NCBI GenBank assembly: GCA_037130265.1
Contig: JBAXTI010000001.1
Span: 171,086 to 235,085, forward strand
DNA from: a bacterium
Lineage (GTDB): Bacteria; Patescibacteriota; Minisyncoccia; Phycocordibacterales; JBBTRF01
Reading direction: 5' to 3'
DNA length: 64,000 nucleotides
Part shown: positions 21,406 through 55,273 of the stretch, piece after piece
How positions within the stretch are numbered: position 1 is the stretch's first letter
How the letters are laid out: each line of letters starts with the position of its first letter
Made by a program: the position numbers and the translations under genes
The notes under the pieces: generated by a model
Told to the model about the DNA's origin: nothing
What the model saw: the letters and a program-made list of their open reading frames with translations, nothing else
The model's database searches: none

Positions 21406-21492
21406 GGAAAGATGCCAGAGCGGTCGAATGGGCAACCCTGGAAAGGTTGTATATCCGAAAGGGTATCGAGGGTTCGAATCCCTCTCTTTCCG
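21406..21492 (+). tRNA. tRNA-Ser (anticodon GGA), long variable arm, CCA not encoded
   Basis: Acceptor GGAAAGA/TCTTTCC, anticodon stem CAACC/GGTTG with loop CTGGAAA, variable arm ATATCC-GAAA-GGGTAT, T-arm GAGGG-TTCGAAT-CCCTC. Confidence 0.6.
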
Positions 21493-21557
21493 CAGTGAGC
21501 GGAGCGAACGTAGGAAAGAAGCAGGCATTTTAATGCCTGCGTGAGGGATTCGAAAAG
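21490..21557 (+). repeat. 68-nt direct repeat, copy 1 (starts in last 3 nt of tRNA-Ser; contains GCAGGCAT-TTTA-ATGCCTGC hairpin and tRNA-Ser 5' acceptor-like GGAAAGA)
   Basis: Matches 22665-22732 with one mismatch by direct reading. Confidence 0.7.
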
Positions 21558-48038: not shown

Positions 48039-49694
48039 TTAGAGAGACAAATTGCCCTTCACGATCGGCGCTCGCTGGCTACTCGCGCCTTTTAGTGTGG
48101 CCGCTACGGCAATCATAATGGCGTTGTCGGTTGAGAGGTCGCTGGTCGGTAGGAAAAGGGGAATGGAATACTGCTTTGTGAGGGTTTCAAAAGCACCCCG
48201 GAGCACCTTGTTGGCGATGACGCCGCCGCCGATGATGAGGGATTGAGTATTGTGTTGTTCAATGGCGAGTGTGGTCTTTTTCGTGAGCACCTCGGCGATA
48301 GCCTGCTCGGTTTCGTACGCGATTTCGGCTTTGTCGGCATCGGTGAGCGGTCGTGTCTTTTCGATCTCTTTGGTGAGATACAGCGCGGCAGTTTTGAGTC
48401 CAGAAAATGAGAAGTCGAGGTCTTTCGAATGAATCATTGGCCGAGGCAAGGTGTACTGGCTCGCGGTGACCGTCTTGGCGAGGGCACTGATCTGTGGGCC
48501 GCCAGGGTATGGCATACCTAGTATGCGCGCGACTTTATCGAAAGCTTCGCCCACCGCGTCGTCGCGCGTCTTTCCGATGATCTCGTATGAGCCAAGAGCC
48601 GATACCAAGACTAGCTCGGTGTGGCCGCCGCTGATGAGTAATGAGAGTGCTGGCAACGGCGGCTTCGCAAGCTCCGCAAGGCCACTGTGCGACTGTGTAG
48701 TGAGAAGAGAGGCGACAATGTGACCTTCCATGTGGTTGATCGGCATGATTGGAATATTCCAAAGTAATGCCAACGCTTTCGCAAAGCCAACACCGACCCA
48801 GAGTGCTGGTTCGAGGCCTGGTCCTTCGGTGACGGCGATCATGTCGACTGCGGGGCGAGTGAGTGGAGTTTTTGGGGTTGCAGACGAGCTGTGTCGCTCG
48901 ATGAATTTCTCAAAGAGGGCGAGTAGTTCGGCTTCACGGGCGAGAATGATGCGAATTTCCGCGAGTACCGCTTCACTTGCGCCGTTCCAGGCGACCGTTG
49001 GCAGTGTTGTCGCATCTTCTATCTTCGCCGCTTCGTCAAATAATATTTTCTCTAGCAATGGTACAAGGTTTCGGCCGTGCTCTCTCTTTGCCAACACAGG
49101 AAACACGCCGCCATATGGGCGATGGATGTCGATTTGCGAGATTAATTCATGTCCGAGTACCTGGACATTCCGACCTTGCGTGCGGACGAGACTGAGCGCT
49201 GTTTCGTCACAGCTGGTTTCGATGCCGAGGATGATTCGTGGTGATCTGATTGATATAAAAAAGTCGAGAATCATCTGCCTGTGCCCTTCGAGGAATTCGC
49301 CGCTGGCACGAATCTCCGATTCGGACATAAAAATACCATACTGACCTTCCCCGATCTTTACTTGCTTCTCGAAATCCGGCGTCACCAGCAGCGTATATTC
49401 GTGTGCTCGAACCTTGCCGAAAGAATCAGCGTAGTCGTAGGTGCCGAGCGTGGTCAAGGCTTCCTTGAAAGCGGGAAGCTCGAGGTCGATGTTGAGCTCC
49501 TCGAGAATTTCGCGGTGCAGGCCTTGCTCAGGCGTTTCACCCGCTTCGATGCCGCCACCAAAGAGGCCAAATACGTCGGGATTTCTTCGCGCATCTTTTG
49601 ATCGACGTTGCACGAAAGCGTAGCGCTCGTTATTTTGGTCAGACAAAAAATACGGGATCAAGCCTGCTGCATGCTTATGCATATCTACTGTCAT
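48039..49694 (-). CDS. tsaD: tRNA threonylcarbamoyladenosine synthesis protein TsaD (Kae1/Gcp) with N-terminal NUDIX domain fusion
   Basis: N-terminal Nudix box GGGIEAGETPEQGLHREILEELN. Then ILGIETSCDETALSL and HRPYGGVFPVLAKREH TsaD motifs. Confidence 0.65.
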   Translation of the reverse strand: MTVDMHKHAAGLIPYFLSDQNNERYAFVQRRSKDARRNPDVFGLFGGGIEAGETPEQGLHREILEELNIDLELPAFKEALTTLGTYDYADSFGKVRAHEYTLLVTPDFEKQVKIGEGQYGIFMSESEIRASGEFLEGHRQMILDFFISIRSPRIILGIETSCDETALSLVRTQGRNVQVLGHELISQIDIHRPYGGVFPVLAKREHGRNLVPLLEKILFDEAAKIEDATTLPTVAWNGASEAVLAEIRIILAREAELLALFEKFIERHSSSATPKTPLTRPAVDMIAVTEGPGLEPALWVGVGFAKALALLWNIPIMPINHMEGHIVASLLTTQSHSGLAELAKPPLPALSLLISGGHTELVLVSALGSYEIIGKTRDDAVGEAFDKVARILGMPYPGGPQISALAKTVTASQYTLPRPMIHSKDLDFSFSGLKTAALYLTKEIEKTRPLTDADKAEIAYETEQAIAEVLTKKTTLAIEQHNTQSLIIGGGVIANKVLRGAFETLTKQYSIPLFLPTSDLSTDNAIMIAVAATLKGASSQRAPIVKGNLSL

Positions 49695-49697
49695 GTG

Positions 49698-49770
49698 TGG
49701 GCGGTACAGGGCTCGAACCTGTTACCTCGTCGACGTCAACGACGCGCTCTACCAAGTGAGCTAACCGCCC
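49698..49770 (-). tRNA. tRNA-Val (anticodon GAC), CCA not encoded
   Basis: Reverse complement folds: GGGCGGT/ACCGCCC, GCTC-ACTTGGTA-GAGC, CGTCG-TTGACGT-CGACG, ACAGG-TTCGAGC-CCTGT. Confidence 0.7.
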
Positions 49771-49873
49771 AAAATATCAATCAAATACCAATGAATACAG
49801 CGTAGCAGATTTTCGAACATCGTGCTACTATTTTGCTATATTTAGTGTAATGCAGACTATTTAGATCACCTTT

Positions 49874-51256
49874 ATGTTGAAAAACCACTCTCCATGGATC
49901 CATCAGCTCAAACGTACCCGACCAGCGGTGCCGTTGAGTGGGGATGTCGAGACTGATGTGGTGGTCGTGGGTGGTGGAATTGCCGGAATCTCCACGGCGT
50001 ATTTTCTCCTCAAGGAAACGAACAAGCGTGTGCTCCTCCTCGAAGCCGACAAGATTGCTCATGGTGCCAGCGGTCACAATGCCGGACAAATCACTTCATA
50101 TTTCGAGCGGCCAATCCACGATATCGCAAAAGAGTTCGGCCTCTCGATGGCGATCGCGGGACAGCGGGCCGTGGAGTCGGCTTGGGCGTTGATCGACCAA
50201 ATGATGGCGGATGCGGGCCTAAAAACACCCATCTATCGCTTCACTGGCTACGCTGGCTGCACCGGCCTAGATGACCTTCTGACCGTGTTTAAGAACAACG
50301 CATGTCGGCTAAAGGGCGGTCTGCCAATTGAATCAATTATGGTGGCTCAAGAATTCGACCGACTCAAGGAGATTCCGAAGGAGTATCGAGATCTGTATAT
50401 TGTCGCGCCTCAGTCGGACATTTTGGCTCTGCTCGAGACGAACAATCCCGACTATATCGCATCTTTCTCATACCAAAAGGGCTGTACGAACAGTGCGCTC
50501 TTGTGTGAGGAGTTGCTTGCATATCTCGCCAACACGTTCAAGGATCGCTTTTCGTTTTTCGAACAGAGTCCGGTGGAAACGGTGATTTTGCGTGATGCTG
50601 GCGGCGTGGTGAAGGTGGGGGATTACACGATCTTGTGCGAGCGGATCGTGCTCTGCACTAATGGCTTCACACATTTCACCATCCAAAACTTGGCCGGTGC
50701 CGAAGTAGACACTTCTTTTCATCACTCAGTGCACGGACGCATCGGCTACATGGCCGGCTATGTCGAACCGCTCGACAGTCCGCCCACGGCGATCAGCTAT
50801 TTCATGAAGGAGAACGATATTCCCGGCGATCCGACTGGCGACGCCTATTTCTATCTCACGCGCCGGCCGCATGAACATGAAGAAAAGAAAGATGTGCCAC
50901 ACAATTTGATCTGCACCGGTGGTCCGGAGAAAGTGTTGCCGAACATGGCGATCTATTCACGCGAGGACGAGCTATCGGAGGAATATCGCGAGAAGATCGA
51001 CATGTTTTTGCGACAGAATTATCGAAAGTATCCCGGCGAACAAACCGAATACGCTTTTTCATGGCACGGCCTAATGGGGTATACGCCAAATGGTATCCGT
51101 CGCGTCGGTACTGAGCCCTGCAACCCAGTCTTGCTCTACAATCTCGGCTGCAACGGCGTCGGTATTTTACCTTCTATCTTCGGCGGCAAGCGCATCGCGC
51201 AGATTGTTCGTGGTGACAAGTTGGAACCGTCGATTTTTGATCCGGGGAGGAAGTAG
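49874..51256 (+). CDS. FAD-dependent oxidoreductase (DAO family)
   Basis: VVVVGGGIAGISTAYFL dinucleotide-binding motif. 460 aa. Confidence 0.6.
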   Translation: MLKNHSPWIHQLKRTRPAVPLSGDVETDVVVVGGGIAGISTAYFLLKETNKRVLLLEADKIAHGASGHNAGQITSYFERPIHDIAKEFGLSMAIAGQRAVESAWALIDQMMADAGLKTPIYRFTGYAGCTGLDDLLTVFKNNACRLKGGLPIESIMVAQEFDRLKEIPKEYRDLYIVAPQSDILALLETNNPDYIASFSYQKGCTNSALLCEELLAYLANTFKDRFSFFEQSPVETVILRDAGGVVKVGDYTILCERIVLCTNGFTHFTIQNLAGAEVDTSFHHSVHGRIGYMAGYVEPLDSPPTAISYFMKENDIPGDPTGDAYFYLTRRPHEHEEKKDVPHNLICTGGPEKVLPNMAIYSREDELSEEYREKIDMFLRQNYRKYPGEQTEYAFSWHGLMGYTPNGIRRVGTEPCNPVLLYNLGCNGVGILPSIFGGKRIAQIVRGDKLEPSIFDPGRK

Positions 51257-51265
51257 CTTTTTGTT

Positions 51266-51356
51266 TGGCGGAAAGGGAGGGATTCGAACCCTCGTAGAGC
51301 TTTCGCCCTCAGCCGATTTCGAGTCGGAGCCGTTGTGACCGCTTCGGTACCTTTCC
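51266..51356 (-). tRNA. tRNA-Ser (anticodon CGA), long variable arm, CCA encoded
   Basis: Reverse complement: GGAAAGG/CCTTTCC, anticodon loop CTCGAAA, variable arm AGGGC-GAAA-GCTCT, T-arm GAGGG-TTCGAAT-CCCTC. Confidence 0.6.
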
Positions 51357-52349
51357 TTTGTTCTTGTCGGCGAAAAATCGATTGTACCGCTTCGCTATTT
51401 TCTCGTTCGATGACCCAATCTCTCGGAAATACTTTTTTATATCGGGCTCTCTTCTAAGAAACACTGCATATTTAGTTGTCTGCGTTGGATGCAAACCCAA
51501 CCTCTCGAGTGTCTTTTTGAAGAAGTAAACTAGTGGTAGCGATCGGTTCGTAAAATTGAGCGCACAATAAGAATATAGAGTATTTTTGCGCAAATGTCTA
51601 TCTACGTAAAAGCAGCCATCCGTGTCTAGTAAGCCGCGGACACACGCTTTGCTAAATCCAATATTTTGTTCGATCCACTTAGGGACCGCCACCTGCTCTT
51701 TGACCTTATTTCCTGGATACAAACCCATCTTCCCAAGTAGTTTTACAAAGGCGACGCGTGAGATGCGTATCAATATTACTCGCCTGTTATTTTGAGGAGT
51801 CGCCGTCGGCCTCTCGCCGAAAATCTCTTCAAAAAGATCGCATACATATACTGAATATGCCGCATCGTCCTCTTTGTGAAGGGTGATGCTCACCTGTCTC
51901 TCTGTGATACCTCCATCTCCTAGTATGATACCAATCAATTCAGCAAGCTTTTTTGTGTGTTTTGGCTTCTTTATCTTTCTCGCGATAAACGGACCAGTGA
52001 GGACTTTTTTCATGCTCTTTATTGCACGAAGCCCTCCAAGCCTCCTTCCTTCAACTGTTCCAGGGTTTCCGTGTAAACGTATTCGCGCCTTACCTCCAAG
52101 GAGAGCCGCTTTGATCTTTTGTTCTTTTTCGTCAATTTTCTCAGCGCGCCGAGGTGCTTCAACTCCGTATTTTCCGTACACATGATCCAGAAATTTCTCA
52201 GGAATGGACACTTTTCCTCGTCTCCAGTCAAAAAGGTTCCTTCTGGTTACGCCATACTCGTTACTAATTTCTGGCCAGGCCAATCCAGATCTTTCCTGGA
52301 TGTTCCTAAAGAATTCTTCCAAATTTTCTTTGTGAAACCTGAAGCGCAT
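51309..52349 (-). CDS. LAGLIDADG-family homing endonuclease (double-motif) with N-terminal HTH region
   Basis: Two LAGLIDADG-like motifs: LIGIILGDGGIT and VRGLLDTDGCFYV. Last 16 codons overlap the 5' half of tRNA-Ser(CGA). Confidence 0.6.
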   Translation of the reverse strand: MRFRFHKENLEEFFRNIQERSGLAWPEISNEYGVTRRNLFDWRRGKVSIPEKFLDHVYGKYGVEAPRRAEKIDEKEQKIKAALLGGKARIRLHGNPGTVEGRRLGGLRAIKSMKKVLTGPFIARKIKKPKHTKKLAELIGIILGDGGITERQVSITLHKEDDAAYSVYVCDLFEEIFGERPTATPQNNRRVILIRISRVAFVKLLGKMGLYPGNKVKEQVAVPKWIEQNIGFSKACVRGLLDTDGCFYVDRHLRKNTLYSYCALNFTNRSLPLVYFFKKTLERLGLHPTQTTKYAVFLRREPDIKKYFREIGSSNEKIAKRYNRFFADKNKGKVPKRSQRLRLEIG

Positions 52350-52476
52350 CTTTCTATTTTATCAGATATATTCAGATATTTACATTACACATGTCATCCA
52401 CAACACATTTTTTGCCATTTTTTCAAAAAATGCTATGATAAATCGCGTTATCGGGAAGGCCTGGTGACAAATAGGT

Positions 52477-52548
52477 GGCCCTATCGTCTAACGGTTAGGA
52501 CACGGCCTTTTCAAGGCTGGAATCAGAGTTCGATTCTCTGTAGGGTCA
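52477..52548 (+). tRNA. tRNA-Glu (anticodon TTC), CCA not encoded
   Basis: GGCCCTA/TAGGGTC (one G-U), anticodon stem CGGCC/GGCTG, loop TTTTCAA, T-arm CAGAG-TTCGATT-CTCTG. Confidence 0.6.
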
Positions 52549-52573
52549 TGCGTTTTTCGGGTATAATACGAAC

Positions 52574-53251
52574 ATGAGAGATATCGCACAAAAACACGTC
52601 GTATTTTGGAAAGATACGACGGTGTTGCGCCGAGTCGTTTTTGGCGTGCTTTTGCTGGCGATTGGTATGTTGTCTATCTATTATTCCCGCGAGTATACGA
52701 GCGACCATCTGGGAAGCGTGGTTCCGGATATTATTTTGGACAATGTGCCAGTGATGCGTGTGGGACTTATCTTCTTTCAGGGCGCTTTCGCTTTCTTTCT
52801 CGTGCTCGTTGGTGTACTTCTTTGGGAGCCGAAGTATATACCGTTTACTCTTGAGACGAGCTCGGTCTTTTTTCTTACACGGTCAGTATTCATGATCATG
52901 ACGCATCTCTCGGCGCCGGCGGTGGAATACTACACCTATACGAGTCGTGATCATCATGTATCGACGGTCCTTTTTACTCTGAGTTCTGGCAACGACCTCT
53001 TCTTTTCTGGACATGCCGGTTTTCCGTTCCTCGTCGCCCTTATTTTCTGGAAGCAGAAGCCGCTTAGATATTTTTTCCTCGTGTGTTCACTTATCGGGTC
53101 CGTCGCGGTACTACTCGGGCATTTGCACTATTCGATCGACGTGTTTTCGGCCTTCTTCATCGCATACGGTGTTTTCGAAATCAGCAAGAGAATTTTCAAG
53201 AGAGAGCATGTATTTGAGGAGTCGTTGGAAACGCTAAAATCATTAAAATAA
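52574..53251 (+). CDS. PAP2-superfamily-like membrane protein
   Basis: FFSGHAG and LGHLHYSIDVFSAF motifs (SGH / HxxxD) in a polytopic membrane protein. Confidence 0.4.
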   Translation: MRDIAQKHVVFWKDTTVLRRVVFGVLLLAIGMLSIYYSREYTSDHLGSVVPDIILDNVPVMRVGLIFFQGAFAFFLVLVGVLLWEPKYIPFTLETSSVFFLTRSVFMIMTHLSAPAVEYYTYTSRDHHVSTVLFTLSSGNDLFFSGHAGFPFLVALIFWKQKPLRYFFLVCSLIGSVAVLLGHLHYSIDVFSAFFIAYGVFEISKRIFKREHVFEESLETLKSLK

Positions 53252-53261
53252 ACATCTCAAT

Positions 53262-53834
53262 ATGGAACACGTTGTCTCGCTCATCTCTGCATATGGTTTC
53301 TGGATCTTGTTGCCGATCATGATCGTCGAGGGACCGATTATTACGATCATTGCCTCTTTTTTGGCTTCGCTCGGTACCTTGAACATTGTTGCCGTCTACT
53401 GCTTCGCACTCTTGGGAAATGTCATTGGTGACCTGTTGTACTATGTTGCTGGTCGCTATGGCGGTCTGCCGTTTGTCGAGAAATACGGAAAGTATATCGG
53501 ACTCAAAAAAGAGGCGATTGCGTATGTTGAAAATCACTACCAGAACCATCTGTTCCGAACCTTGCTTATTGCGAAAGTGACAGAAGCTTTTGTTGTGCCA
53601 ACACTCGCAACGGCGGGAATCATGAAGGCCGACATTCGAAAATTTACCTTGCTCGTGACGGCTATTGAGATACCGAAGGTGTTCCTTATTGTGTGTGTCG
53701 GATACTTCTTCGGAAAGCATTATGTTGAGATTGGGGACTATCTTCAGAAAAGTGAGCTCGCACTCGGTGGATTGATTATTCTCCTCGTGTGCGTATTTTT
53801 TGCATACAAAAAGTGGAAACCAAAAGGTATATGA
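53262..53834 (+). CDS. DedA family (VTT domain) membrane protein
   Basis: ILLPIMIVEGPIIT ... GNVIGDLLYYVAGRYGG pattern of DedA/SNARE-associated proteins. Confidence 0.65.
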   Translation: MEHVVSLISAYGFWILLPIMIVEGPIITIIASFLASLGTLNIVAVYCFALLGNVIGDLLYYVAGRYGGLPFVEKYGKYIGLKKEAIAYVENHYQNHLFRTLLIAKVTEAFVVPTLATAGIMKADIRKFTLLVTAIEIPKVFLIVCVGYFFGKHYVEIGDYLQKSELALGGLIILLVCVFFAYKKWKPKGI

Positions 53835-55273
53835 AGACATTTTCCTGCATTATTCCGGCATACAACGAGGCGGCAGGTATCGGGAGGACACTCGAGGTCG
53901 TTTCGCCGCTTATCGGTTCCGCACTTCTCGAGGTGATCGTGGTTGACGATGGGTCAAAAGATCGGACACGCGAGATTGTGAAAGGTTTTTCTAACGTTCG
54001 CCTGATCGAGAATGAGGTCAATAAAGGGAAGAGTGCGTCTGTGGCTGCTGGGATTGCGGCTGCGGCGGGCGAATATATCTTTCTGCTCGATGCCGACCTG
54101 CGCGGGCTGAATGCACAGAATATTCACGACATCATTGCGCCGGTGAAAAACGGCTCGGCTGATTTCTCGATCAGCTACCGAAAGAATGCTTGGCCACTTT
54201 TTCCTTTCAAAAAGATAGATTACCTCTCCGGAGAGCGGGTGCTGTCGAAGGCATCGCTTCTCCCTGTGCTTTCAGAGATGACGCAGTTGCCTGGGTATGG
54301 CTTGGAAGTATTTTTGAATGGTGTCATCCTGCGTAATGTTATGCGTATTGCTGTCGTGCCATGGCCGAATGTCGAGAATACGTTTAATCAAGACGGCCAG
54401 AGCTGGGTCGCGGTGACTCGCAAAACATTGAGGATTTGGCGCAATGTCCTCTCGACGATTTCGGTTTTCGAGATGTATTCGCAGAATTTGCGCCTGAGAA
54501 AACTGCTGGTTTCTGAAGCTGCACCGCGACCCCGACTGAAATTGAGCTTCGTGATCCCTGCGCACAATGAAGAGAAAGTGATTGCTCAGTGTATTGAGTC
54601 GGTACAAAAGGAGATTGCTCGCTATGATTTCGACACGGAGATCGTGGTGGTGAATAACAACAGTAAAGACCGTACCAAGGAGATCGTCGGCCGTATGCCA
54701 GGTGTCACGCTCGTCGATGAGACGCAAAAAGGCCTCGTATTCGCGCGAAAATGCGGTCTAGAGCACTCTACGGGTGAACTCATCGCCAATATCGATGCTG
54801 ACGTCGTGGTGCCTGAAGGCTGGCTTTCTACGGTGATGATGGCTTTTGCTCGGGATCCACATCTTGTTGCCCTGAGTGGTCCGTATATCTACCACGACCT
54901 AGGCTTGGTGCGCCGGATTTTGGTTCGATTGTTCTACTATCTCGGCTATGCTGGCTATATTTTGAACAGTAAAGTGTTTCGTATCAGCGGCATGCTTCAG
55001 GGTGGTAATTTCATCGTCCGTCGTGACGCCATGGCAAAGATCGGCGGCTACGATACTCGCATCGCCTTCTATGGCGAAGATACTGATGTAGCAAAGCGTA
55101 TTTTTAAGGTGGGAAAAGTGCTGTGGACGTTCCAGTTGCCAATGTACACTTCTGGTCGTCGATTTCGAGAGGAGGGACTCGCGACCATGGGCATCAAGTA
55201 CGCCATGAACCACGTGTGGCCGATCTTTTTCTCAAAGCCATTTACGACGGTATACAAAGATATCCGTGAATAA
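53831..55273 (+). CDS. tandem family-2 glycosyltransferase (two GT2 domains)
   Basis: CIIPAYNE ... VVDDGSKDRT and again VIPAHNEE ... VVVNNNSKDRT. ATGA overlap with dedA. Confidence 0.65.
   Translation: MKTFSCIIPAYNEAAGIGRTLEVVSPLIGSALLEVIVVDDGSKDRTREIVKGFSNVRLIENEVNKGKSASVAAGIAAAAGEYIFLLDADLRGLNAQNIHDIIAPVKNGSADFSISYRKNAWPLFPFKKIDYLSGERVLSKASLLPVLSEMTQLPGYGLEVFLNGVILRNVMRIAVVPWPNVENTFNQDGQSWVAVTRKTLRIWRNVLSTISVFEMYSQNLRLRKLLVSEAAPRPRLKLSFVIPAHNEEKVIAQCIESVQKEIARYDFDTEIVVVNNNSKDRTKEIVGRMPGVTLVDETQKGLVFARKCGLEHSTGELIANIDADVVVPEGWLSTVMMAFARDPHLVALSGPYIYHDLGLVRRILVRLFYYLGYAGYILNSKVFRISGMLQGGNFIVRRDAMAKIGGYDTRIAFYGEDTDVAKRIFKVGKVLWTFQLPMYTSGRRFREEGLATMGIKYAMNHVWPIFFSKPFTTVYKDIRE

Follow-up and report, generated by a model that had tools for sequence, protein, structure and literature searches.

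We find that an open reading frame (ORF) of 346 codons, which runs into the tRNA-Ser(CGA) gene in the 64,000-nucleotide stretch of DNA analysed here (the window), encodes a protein with an N-terminal helix-turn-helix (HTH) and two LAGLIDADG motifs. We put a probability of roughly 0.55 on the reading that it belongs to a lineage of free-standing homing endonucleases that targets tRNA-Ser genes and is transcribed together with the tRNA, the copy in the window being old and vertically inherited. The evidence for this reading includes the position of the gene beside tRNA-Ser throughout the family, the predicted endonuclease fold with its invariant catalytic residues, and truncated tRNA-Ser fragments at the upstream edge of the gene in many related loci.

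Results

The family is fixed beside tRNA-Ser genes

A protein search returned 394 relatives of about 335–350 residues with 38–51% identity, nearly all of them from metagenome-assembled genomes (MAGs) of the candidate phyla radiation (CPR)/Patescibacteria. A profile search gave 732 clusters (50% identity) at E ≤ 1e-30 among 1.84 billion representatives, and 260 relatives are present among 185,579 GTDB species genomes. The family is sizeable but sporadically distributed. We compared a set of 82 loci, composed of 80 loci fetched from the 260 GTDB relatives, the window, and L081, the closest relative of the window at 82% identity (L-numbers denote related loci fetched for comparison). A tRNA-Ser sequence lies no more than about 80 nucleotides from the ORF in 81 of the 82; in the remaining locus the contig ends 14 nucleotides past the stop codon, and adjacency is not assessable. 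The usual arrangement, seen in 73 loci, is a tRNA-Ser on the same strand straight after the ORF. The two genes overlap in 44 loci (by 15 nucleotides in 14, by 24 in nine and by 48 in three, the window included), 27 abut the tRNA or leave a gap of at most 30 nucleotides, and two, one of them L033, have a larger gap. Three loci show the start of a tRNA-Ser, which the contig end then cuts off. Adjacency to tRNA-Ser is a family-wide property, far beyond chance.

Among the same-strand cases in a first tally of 80 loci, the adjacent tRNA has the anticodon CGA in 34, GCT in 19, GGA in 15 and TGA in three, which covers all four common isoacceptors, and in a neighbour-joining tree of the proteins the clades follow the anticodon of the adjacent tRNA-Ser. 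The GGA clade is mostly found in Microgenomates, the CGA and GCT clades mostly in Parcubacteria and relatives. One MAG holds two copies, at Ser-CGA and at Ser-GCT (L013 and L057). The second tRNA-Ser of the window (GGA, 21406–21493) has no endonuclease gene of this type adjoining it.

Some further features of these loci were observed. The tRNA-Ser isoacceptors often stand in tandem (for example CGA-TGA, GCT-TGA or GGA-GCT-TGA, in L004, L014, L066, L069, L075, L076, L079, L041, L042, L046 and L051), and several tandem loci have the endonuclease between two tRNA-Ser genes (TGA, endonuclease, GCT or CGA). ARAGORN calls a tRNA-Ser(ACT) on the minus strand at L043:3820-3909, L056:3813-3900, L072:3840-3927 and L080:3839-3926 (locus coordinates). 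These are type-II tRNAs with a long variable arm and the anticodon loop TTACTAA, divergent and immediately upstream of the endonuclease gene; the genomes concerned carry tRNA-Ser(GCT) as well, directly behind that gene. A serine tRNA with A34 would be unusual for bacteria. Record titles name non-CPR taxa for several members (for example 'Gammaproteobacteria' for L005, L012, L045 and L050, 'Nanoarchaeota' for L002 and 'Deltaproteobacteria' for L035), which are probably mislabels, the proteins being close to members from CPR MAGs. On two contigs with 60% GC, probably non-CPR, a weak tblastn match extends about 170 nucleotides upstream of tRNA-Ser(CGA) (L147:4563-4829 and L191:3643-3918). It is about 35% identical to the C-terminal ~100 residues of family member L007, translated tRNA read-through included, and may have arisen by chance or mark a decayed endonuclease outside CPR.

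The protein has the motifs and predicted fold of a LAGLIDADG endonuclease

LAGLIDADG endonucleases cleave double-stranded DNA site-specifically and leave 4-nucleotide 3' overhangs. In the window protein, motif 1 reads FIGIILGDG (D145) and motif 2 reads VRGLLDTDG (D244). Both aspartates are invariant in an alignment with 26 homologues, as are Q152 and K215, which may be further active-site positions. Pfam LAGLIDADG_3 matches residues 234–311 with E = 2e-8, above the cut-off, and LAGLIDADG_2 matches residues 138–195 with E = 2.7e-4, just under it; LAGLIDADG_1, _2 and _3 are all matched among family members. The AlphaFold model, based on 26 homologues, has a predicted local distance difference test score (pLDDT) of 87.7. 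It contains LAGLIDADG helices at residues 133–145 and 230–244 that end in D145 and D244, within a core of two pseudo-symmetric alpha-beta-beta-alpha-beta-beta-alpha halves with the elements in the expected order. The HTH of the model is formed by helices 25–32 and 36–44 inside an N-terminal domain of residues 1–115. HTH_3 and related Pfam HTH families match several homologues, and one subclade of about 265 residues is without this domain. The tail encoded by the tRNA (residues 332–346) has a pLDDT below 50 and is predicted to be disordered.

The best Foldseek matches in the PDB are the endonuclease domain of the TliVMA intein, I-Tsp061I, the bI3 maturase, I-AniI, the I-OnuI family and I-DmoI, with E-values from 1e-10 to 1e-7, and each of the top 50 PDB matches is a LAGLIDADG enzyme or a maturase. 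Structurally, the intein endonuclease domain comes closest. A sequence search of solved structures gives no match at E ≤ 1, so the homology is visible at the level of the fold only. No Hint or intein Pfam domain is found in any of 26 members, NCBIfam matches to intein-containing proteins are weak and confined to the LAGLIDADG region, and the WhiA Pfam models match only one or two of the 26 members, weakly. By its motifs and predicted fold the protein is an intact member of the double-LAGLIDADG superfamily.

The gene ends inside a complete tRNA

The tRNA-Ser(CGA) and tRNA-Glu genes each match the Rfam tRNA model end to end and uninterrupted, with 48.9 and 59.1 bits (gathering score 29). A scan of positions 49000–54000 against Rfam at E ≤ 1 reveals no intron or other structured RNA, only three tRNAs and sub-threshold noise. 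An earlier note on this DNA had described a 346-residue ORF with two motifs and an N-terminal HTH between tRNA-Ser(CGA) and a divergent tRNA-Glu, and the ORF call, ARAGORN, Rfam, Pfam and AlphaFold agree with that description. Its LAGLIDADG motifs are confirmed by the LAGLIDADG_3 profile match, its view of the copy as free-standing is borne out by the lack of intron and intein and by the uninterrupted tRNA, and its question whether tRNA-Ser is full length is answered by a complete gene, CCA end included. The 48-nucleotide overlap with the 5' half of tRNA-Ser that it had reported is also real, the last 15 codons and TGA being nucleotides 1–48 of the tRNA. Aligned with 36 other endonuclease-linked tRNA-Ser(CGA) genes, the window tRNA has a non-canonical D-arm, UACCGAAGCGGUCACAACGG.

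Outside the tRNA the window ORF has no stop codon: its final 15 codons read GKVPKRSQRLRLEIG, and the TGA lies at tRNA nucleotides 46–48. Nearly all C-termini in the family have the form G-x-V-P-K-(R/W)-S, GGVG or GEVA, which is the in-frame translation of the first nucleotides of the tRNA. The tRNA usually supplies the in-frame stop as well, either TAG/TAA at nucleotides 13–15 (U13-A14-R15) or TAA at nucleotides 22–24 in GGUCAUAACGG. At the usual TAA site the window and L081 read CAC AAC (nucleotides 22–24 are CAA in the window), and the window ORF runs on to nucleotides 46–48 because a U-to-C change in the D-loop of the tRNA removed the in-frame TAA. Judged from the alignment, the 48-nucleotide overlap is a small lineage-specific accident within the general pattern.

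Because the ORF runs up to or into it, tRNA-Ser has no conventional promoter of its own, and its transcript would therefore have to run through the endonuclease gene or start within the ORF. A sigma-70-like sequence, TAGACA-17-TATATT (51600..51572, 10 of 12 matches), lies within a 43-nucleotide stretch identical in L081. This is the longest identical run in an alignment of 79% nucleotide identity, and a run of that length is reached in 60 of 10,000 shuffles. We regard it as a candidate internal promoter of tRNA-Ser in the window and L081 only. Relatives, too, show an excess of promoter-like sites at this alignment column, but the -35 hexamer there encodes conserved V-D-K/R; an internal promoter common to the family was not retained, since the conserved V-D-K residues explain the hexamer. 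RNase P cleaves at nucleotide 1 of the tRNA. In all overlapping members this cleavage would sever the stop codon from the mRNA.

Truncated tRNA-Ser fragments lie at the upstream edge of the gene

We scanned 1.17 Mb with a position weight matrix for tRNA-Ser nucleotides 1–19, which gave 42 matches outside annotated tRNAs compared to 12.6 in shuffles. About 21 of the matches, from 20 loci, are on the ORF strand 6–112 nucleotides upstream of the start codon, a zone that makes up less than 1% of the scanned positions and in which about 0.1 would be expected. These fragments (F) extend from tRNA nucleotide 1 to about nucleotide 16–23 and end in the D-loop, typically after GGTTGA. Well-preserved examples are those of L025 and L045. 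A canonical tRNA-Ser gene rebuilt from such a fragment would read GGAGAAGTGTCAGAGTGGTTGA and then continue with an ordinary D-stem and anticodon stem. The D-arm of F is mostly of the canonical tRNA-Ser type and always unlike the D-arm of the complete tRNA behind the ORF (T), while the acceptor strands of F and T are identical in 6 of 19 pairs, two rare variants included. In a hand comparison the D-stem of F cannot pair with the 3' D-stem of T, so that any boundary where new sequence meets old must fall past the D-arm, unless the entire tRNA is new.

The layout in many loci is thus F ending in the D-loop, a -10 box, six nucleotides and the start codon, the ORF, and a complete tRNA-Ser with a different D-arm. 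More decayed versions of F can be aligned in L024, L018, L040, L054, L020, L027, L049, L035 and L004, among them the sister clades of the window (AAATGTGCTAGAGTGGATAA in L018 and L040, GGCAGGGTGTCAGAGCTGTTGAT in L024). In another large clade F has become part of the gene itself: F nucleotides 1–6 come after a -10 box, and F nucleotides 7–9, changed from GTG to ATG, are the start codon, so that the proteins begin with M-(A/P/S)-E-(L/R). Several loci have a D-loop of F that reads TTGAC(A/T) and lies 17–18 nucleotides upstream of a -10 box, so that F would supply the -35 element. A TAnnnT sequence stands 5–8 nucleotides before an in-frame start in 51 of 71 loci (exactly 6 nucleotides in 41), compared to 5.3 in shuffles, which implies that the mRNAs of the family would be leaderless. 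In the window this region reads TAAAAT-AGAAAG-ATG (52361..52347), and TAAAAT-N6-ATG is kept in L001, L006 and L081; the sigma-70 promoter scan did not call the TAAAAT box of the window.

Alleles without the endonuclease and the age of the window copy

A pattern for the anticodon arm of tRNA-Ser(CGA) identified 120 metagenome loci, most of them without an endonuclease and, by GC and sequence, probably largely non-CPR. Many tblastn matches in these loci are to translated tRNA only; the set yielded L168 and L194, which are empty, and L123, which bears an endonuclease. The comparison with endonuclease-less alleles that the earlier note had proposed can thus be made at the same type of tRNA-Glu/tRNA-Ser locus. 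In L168 and L194 (GC 45–48%) divergent tRNA-Glu(UUC) and tRNA-Ser(CGA) genes are separated by a spacer of 130–133 nucleotides with no endonuclease, and nucleotides 1–47 of tRNA-Ser are identical to those in the endonuclease-bearing loci L001 and L039. Fifteen endonuclease-bearing loci, as well as the two empty alleles, have a divergent tRNA-Glu as neighbour. The spacer motif ATAGCATTTTTTG(T/A)AAAA..GCAAAAAA is common to L168, L194, the window, L081, L001, L006 and L052. After this motif the empty alleles have a -10 box and then the tRNA, and the bearing alleles have a 5' region and ORF of about 1.05 kb and then the tRNA. On the other strand the motif is also the promoter of tRNA-Glu (TTGCCA-16-TATGAT).

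The GC content is 35% at 52300–52499, and that of the ORF is about 45% compared to 50% for the window, a mild shift towards AT. The earlier note had read the local GC dip as a sign of foreign origin, which does not hold: the dip is the AT-rich divergent promoter spacer, and since its core motif is shared with the empty alleles it is native promoter DNA and not an import.

The window and L081 share the tRNA-Glu/ORF/tRNA-Ser cassette and a neighbouring flavin adenine dinucleotide (FAD) oxidoreductase. Between the two, synonymous divergence (dS) is about 1.0; the endonuclease has a ratio of nonsynonymous to synonymous divergence (dN/dS) of 0.10, which falls to 0.06 in its nuclease core, and the oxidoreductase has one of 0.043. 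The ORF is intact in 81 of 82 copies, L033 alone being damaged. That copy (L033:3977-5050) has an in-frame stop after codon 185 and is a possible pseudogene, in a MAG labelled Omnitrophota. No family member is found in GenBank phages or IMG/VR. As judged from these sequences, the window copy is old, vertically inherited at least since the split from L081, and functionally constrained. The earlier suggestion of a recent intron or homing event at a tRNA locus is therefore only partly upheld. The tie to a tRNA locus and the existence of endonuclease-less alleles stand; the intron does not, given the Rfam result and the uninterrupted tRNA, and neither does the recent date, as the same arrangement is present in L081 at 82% identity and dS of about 1, and family-wide.

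Table 1. Features of the endonuclease locus, in window coordinates.
Feature	Position	Strand	Basis or remark
HTH and double-LAGLIDADG endonuclease ORF, 346 residues, ATG start	51309..52349	-	ORF call, Pfam, alignment, AlphaFold, Foldseek, dN/dS vs L081
tRNA-Ser(CGA) (T), full length, encoded CCA	51266..51356	-	ARAGORN; Rfam tRNA; alignment
tRNA-Glu(UUC), divergent, left-hand neighbour of the locus	52476..52549	+	ARAGORN; Rfam tRNA
ORF/tRNA overlap, codons 332–346 and TGA (tRNA-Ser nucleotides 1–48)	51309..51356	-	direct sequence reading
Predicted double-LAGLIDADG nuclease core, residues 128–331	51357..51968	-	Pfam, invariant Asp, AlphaFold, Foldseek
LAGLIDADG motif 1, residues 133–146	51912-51953	-	D145 codon 51915-51917
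LAGLIDADG motif 2, residues 230–245	51615-51662	-	D244 codon 51618-51620
N-terminal accessory domain, residues 1–115	52005..52349	-	HTH, residues 25–44, at 52218-52277
Probable -10 box TAAAAT, 6 nucleotides 5' of ATG	52356..52361	-	kept in L001, L006, L081
Possible decayed relic of F, AAATGTGTTGTGGATGAC	52393..52410	-	comparison with F fragments of sister loci; weak
Divergent promoter spacer, endonuclease-strand motif ATAGCATTTTTTGAAAAAATGGCAAAAAATG	52406..52439		promoter scan and conservation
Promoter TTGCCA-16-TATGAT facing tRNA-Glu	52412-52439	+	promoter scan
43-nucleotide stretch identical in L081, candidate internal tRNA-Ser promoter	51562..51604	-	promoter scan, alignment

Elsewhere in the window, a 551-residue ORF on the minus strand (48039–49694) is an apparent fusion of an N-terminal Nudix hydrolase (GGGIEAGETPEQGLHREILEELN) with a TsaD/Kae1-type tRNA t6A synthesis protein. 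A tRNA-Val(GAC) (49697–49770) lies 3 nucleotides upstream of its start codon.

Discussion

In the mechanism that we propose, the enzyme would cut a sensitive tRNA-Ser gene in or near the D-loop, at about nucleotides 16–23, a position suggested by the truncated fragments, which end in the D-loop at the upstream edge of the ORF. Repair from an endonuclease-bearing donor would copy in the ORF together with its downstream tRNA-Ser, and the first ~20 nucleotides of the recipient gene would stay behind as F, which would serve some lineages as the -35 box (TTGAC) and others as the start codon. F and the 5' end of T are direct repeats, and recombination between them could delete the ORF and regenerate an empty allele, offering a simple route to precise loss. 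The tRNA itself would come either from read-through of the leaderless endonuclease mRNA or from an ORF-internal promoter, and removal of the ORF stop codon by RNase P should limit the amount of endonuclease. The window would then hold an old insertion in which F has almost decayed. A LAGLIDADG site of 20–22 bp centred at the D-loop would reach the anticodon stem, which would account for isoacceptor-specific clades and for the sparing of the other tRNA-Ser genes of a genome. The preserved and decayed fragments, the empty alleles, the sporadic spread and the conserved catalytic residues fit a homing cycle of gain, decay and loss.

Several observations weigh against this reading. Our searches turned up no donor/recipient pair with a fresh insertion, and among 145 locus pairs with syntenic flanking proteins none gives clear evidence of a recent horizontal transfer. 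In these pairs the identity of the endonucleases follows that of the flanks (r = 0.56, means 43% and 46%), a pattern consistent with vertical inheritance over a long time, during which a purely selfish element should have lost its integrity. A matching 3' remnant of tRNA-Ser was searched for downstream of T and none was found, leaving simple insertion of ORF plus tRNA into a resident tRNA unsupported. The relic of F in the window is at best weak, with GTGGATGAC within 52393–52410 resembling the GTGGTTGAC that ends well-preserved fragments, and the GCT clade is mostly without well-preserved F, only decayed versions embedded in the start codon being seen. The complete tRNA after the ORF often shares its 5' half with endonuclease-less tRNA-Ser(CGA) genes of many bacteria, so that only a target with a different, canonical D-arm would account for why the carrier allele is immune. 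The layout also has exceptions, as three loci have a convergent tRNA-Ser after a terminator hairpin, and two have an inverted 5' fragment of tRNA-Ser over the end of the ORF and a divergent tRNA-Ser upstream. These inverted fragments (L048:2018-2048 and L055:5024-5052, opposite strand, at least 26 nucleotides beginning with GGAGAGGTCGCATAGTGGCCTAGTGC) carry a TATAAT-like box of their own and resemble a rearranged or half-inverted form of the usual layout.

A purely selfish element is also hard to square with divergence that looks vertical, with strong purifying selection and with the lack of degenerate copies, and co-option by the host, the domesticated nuclease of the earlier note, therefore stays a serious rival. 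The protein would in that case be a former homing endonuclease that now binds or nicks DNA at its own tRNA-Ser locus, as an autoregulator, as a regulator of tRNA-Ser transcription or as a promoter of recombination or amplification at tRNA-Ser genes, with the HTH and the LAGLIDADG saddle binding the tRNA-like fragment or the promoter. That F overlaps the promoter of the gene would suit an operator; the homing endonuclease I-TevI represses its own promoter in this manner. Co-divergence with the flanking genes, a dN/dS of 0.10 that is comparable to the 0.043 of the housekeeping neighbour, the 81 intact copies out of 82, the lack of copies in phage collections and the obligate co-transcription with an essential tRNA would all agree with such a role. 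A host function accounts less well for the sporadic distribution with endonuclease-less alleles at the same locus, for the invariance of both catalytic aspartates and of other putative active-site positions, for truncated tRNA fragments at the ORF boundary, which point to DNA breakage and insertion, and for the preserved acceptor-stem parts of many fragments, which have no obvious regulatory role. We consider co-option possible but, on balance, unlikely.

Bacterial LAGLIDADG genes are usually borne by introns or inteins, and the ORF could accordingly be a relic that once resided in a group I intron of tRNA-Ser or in an intein and has lost the self-splicing part. F and the ORF superficially resemble exon 1 and an intron, and the nearest structural match and the weak NCBIfam matches are to intein proteins. 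The absence of an Rfam intron at E ≤ 1 and of a Hint or intein domain, the completeness of the downstream tRNA from nucleotide 1, which is not an 'exon 2', and the stability of the arrangement throughout the family make such an origin improbable and largely refute it for the present state of the locus; moreover, we know of no bacterial intron site in the D-loop. As tRNA genes cluster, a mechanical ORF may also run into a tRNA, yet chance adjacency or an ORF-calling artefact is already refuted by the association with tRNA-Ser in 81 of 82 loci, the confident fold, the purifying selection and the ~732 clusters, and can be set aside.

The preferred reading, a homing endonuclease lineage that targets tRNA-Ser, can be taken one step further. 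A non-canonical D-arm is present in about 61% of endonuclease-adjacent tRNA-Ser genes compared to about 31% of non-adjacent ones, a contrast that is suggestive of a resistant allele but not decisive, as such D-arms are also found in tRNA-Ser genes with no endonuclease beside them and the samples are not phylogenetically independent. The element might be a natural 'cleave-and-rescue' cassette, which cuts the D-arm region of ordinary tRNA-Ser genes and is welded to a fully functional tRNA-Ser allele that resists cleavage and within which the ORF ends. We hold this extension to be doubtful. If true, each homing event would swap an essential host tRNA gene for the copy in the cassette, and the leftover ~20 nucleotides would be re-used as a -35 box, a start codon and possibly an operator. 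Homing by replacement of an essential RNA gene, with no self-splicing element involved, would be a new mode, and one kept across the CPR radiation.

With I-Tsp061I, I-DmoI, TliVMA, I-AniI and I-OnuI the window protein shares two half-domains and two LAGLIDADG helices with acidic ends; unlike these it is free-standing, has an extra N-terminal HTH domain of ~115 residues and is fixed beside tRNA-Ser. It does not belong with the intron-encoded enzymes, as no intron family matches at E ≤ 1 in 49000–54000, or with the intein-encoded ones, as there is no Hint domain and the ORF is an independent gene that has a start codon and promoter to itself. WhiA also combines a double-LAGLIDADG scaffold with an HTH and offers a model for co-option by the host. 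However, the HTH of WhiA is C-terminal and its catalytic residues are lost, whereas the window family has an N-terminal HTH and invariant D145 and D244, which sets it apart from a domesticated regulator of the WhiA type.

SegB of phage T4 is a free-standing GIY-YIG endonuclease encoded in a phage tRNA cluster, the recognition site of which includes a conserved tRNA-gene motif and which drives the inheritance of itself and of neighbouring tRNA genes (PMC2330249). The likeness lies in the free-standing endonuclease gene among tRNA genes, and the same logic is proposed here for the window family. SegB differs as a phage GIY-YIG enzyme with a motif in the T-psi-C arm, whereas the window family consists of chromosomal LAGLIDADG enzymes with a putative site in the D-loop, is specific to tRNA-Ser and has an ORF that physically overlaps the tRNA; as a LAGLIDADG family with no member found in phage records or IMG/VR, it is not SegB-like in class. 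The LAGLIDADG endonucleases described from CPR lie inside 16S and 23S rRNA genes, often in group I introns (PMC11270868). They come from the same host radiation and superfamily and also have a highly conserved RNA gene as target, but the window family is outside any intron and abuts tRNA-Ser. The words tRNA, free-standing and helix-turn-helix are absent from the main text of that study (PMC11270868).

In our full-text searches, CPR LAGLIDADG enzymes appeared only in rRNA-gene insertions (PMC11270868, PMC11809585, PMC7143001), free-standing endonucleases linked to tRNA genes only in phage (SegB) or organelles, and a 2026 survey of more than 300 LAGLIDADG enzymes treats only intron-embedded ones. 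The relatives that carry a database name are called 'hypothetical protein' or 'LAGLIDADG family homing endonuclease', or bear a name that is evidently wrong. Within these full-text searches, the tRNA-Ser-linked HTH-LAGLIDADG family appears to be undescribed.

If our reading is correct, bacterial chromosomes would contain free-standing LAGLIDADG genes dedicated to a single tRNA identity, with isoacceptor-specific sub-lineages, and CPR genomes would hold a second kind of LAGLIDADG element besides the rRNA insertions. An essential gene would be invaded without an intron or intein, by an element that sits at the 5' edge of the gene or replaces its 5' part and shares its transcript. The family would further provide several hundred compact, HTH-bearing meganucleases whose targets could be guessed from genomic context, useful for studies of specificity and for engineering. 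It would also be a testable case of a selfish nuclease kept intact over deep time, through continued homing or through co-option by the host.

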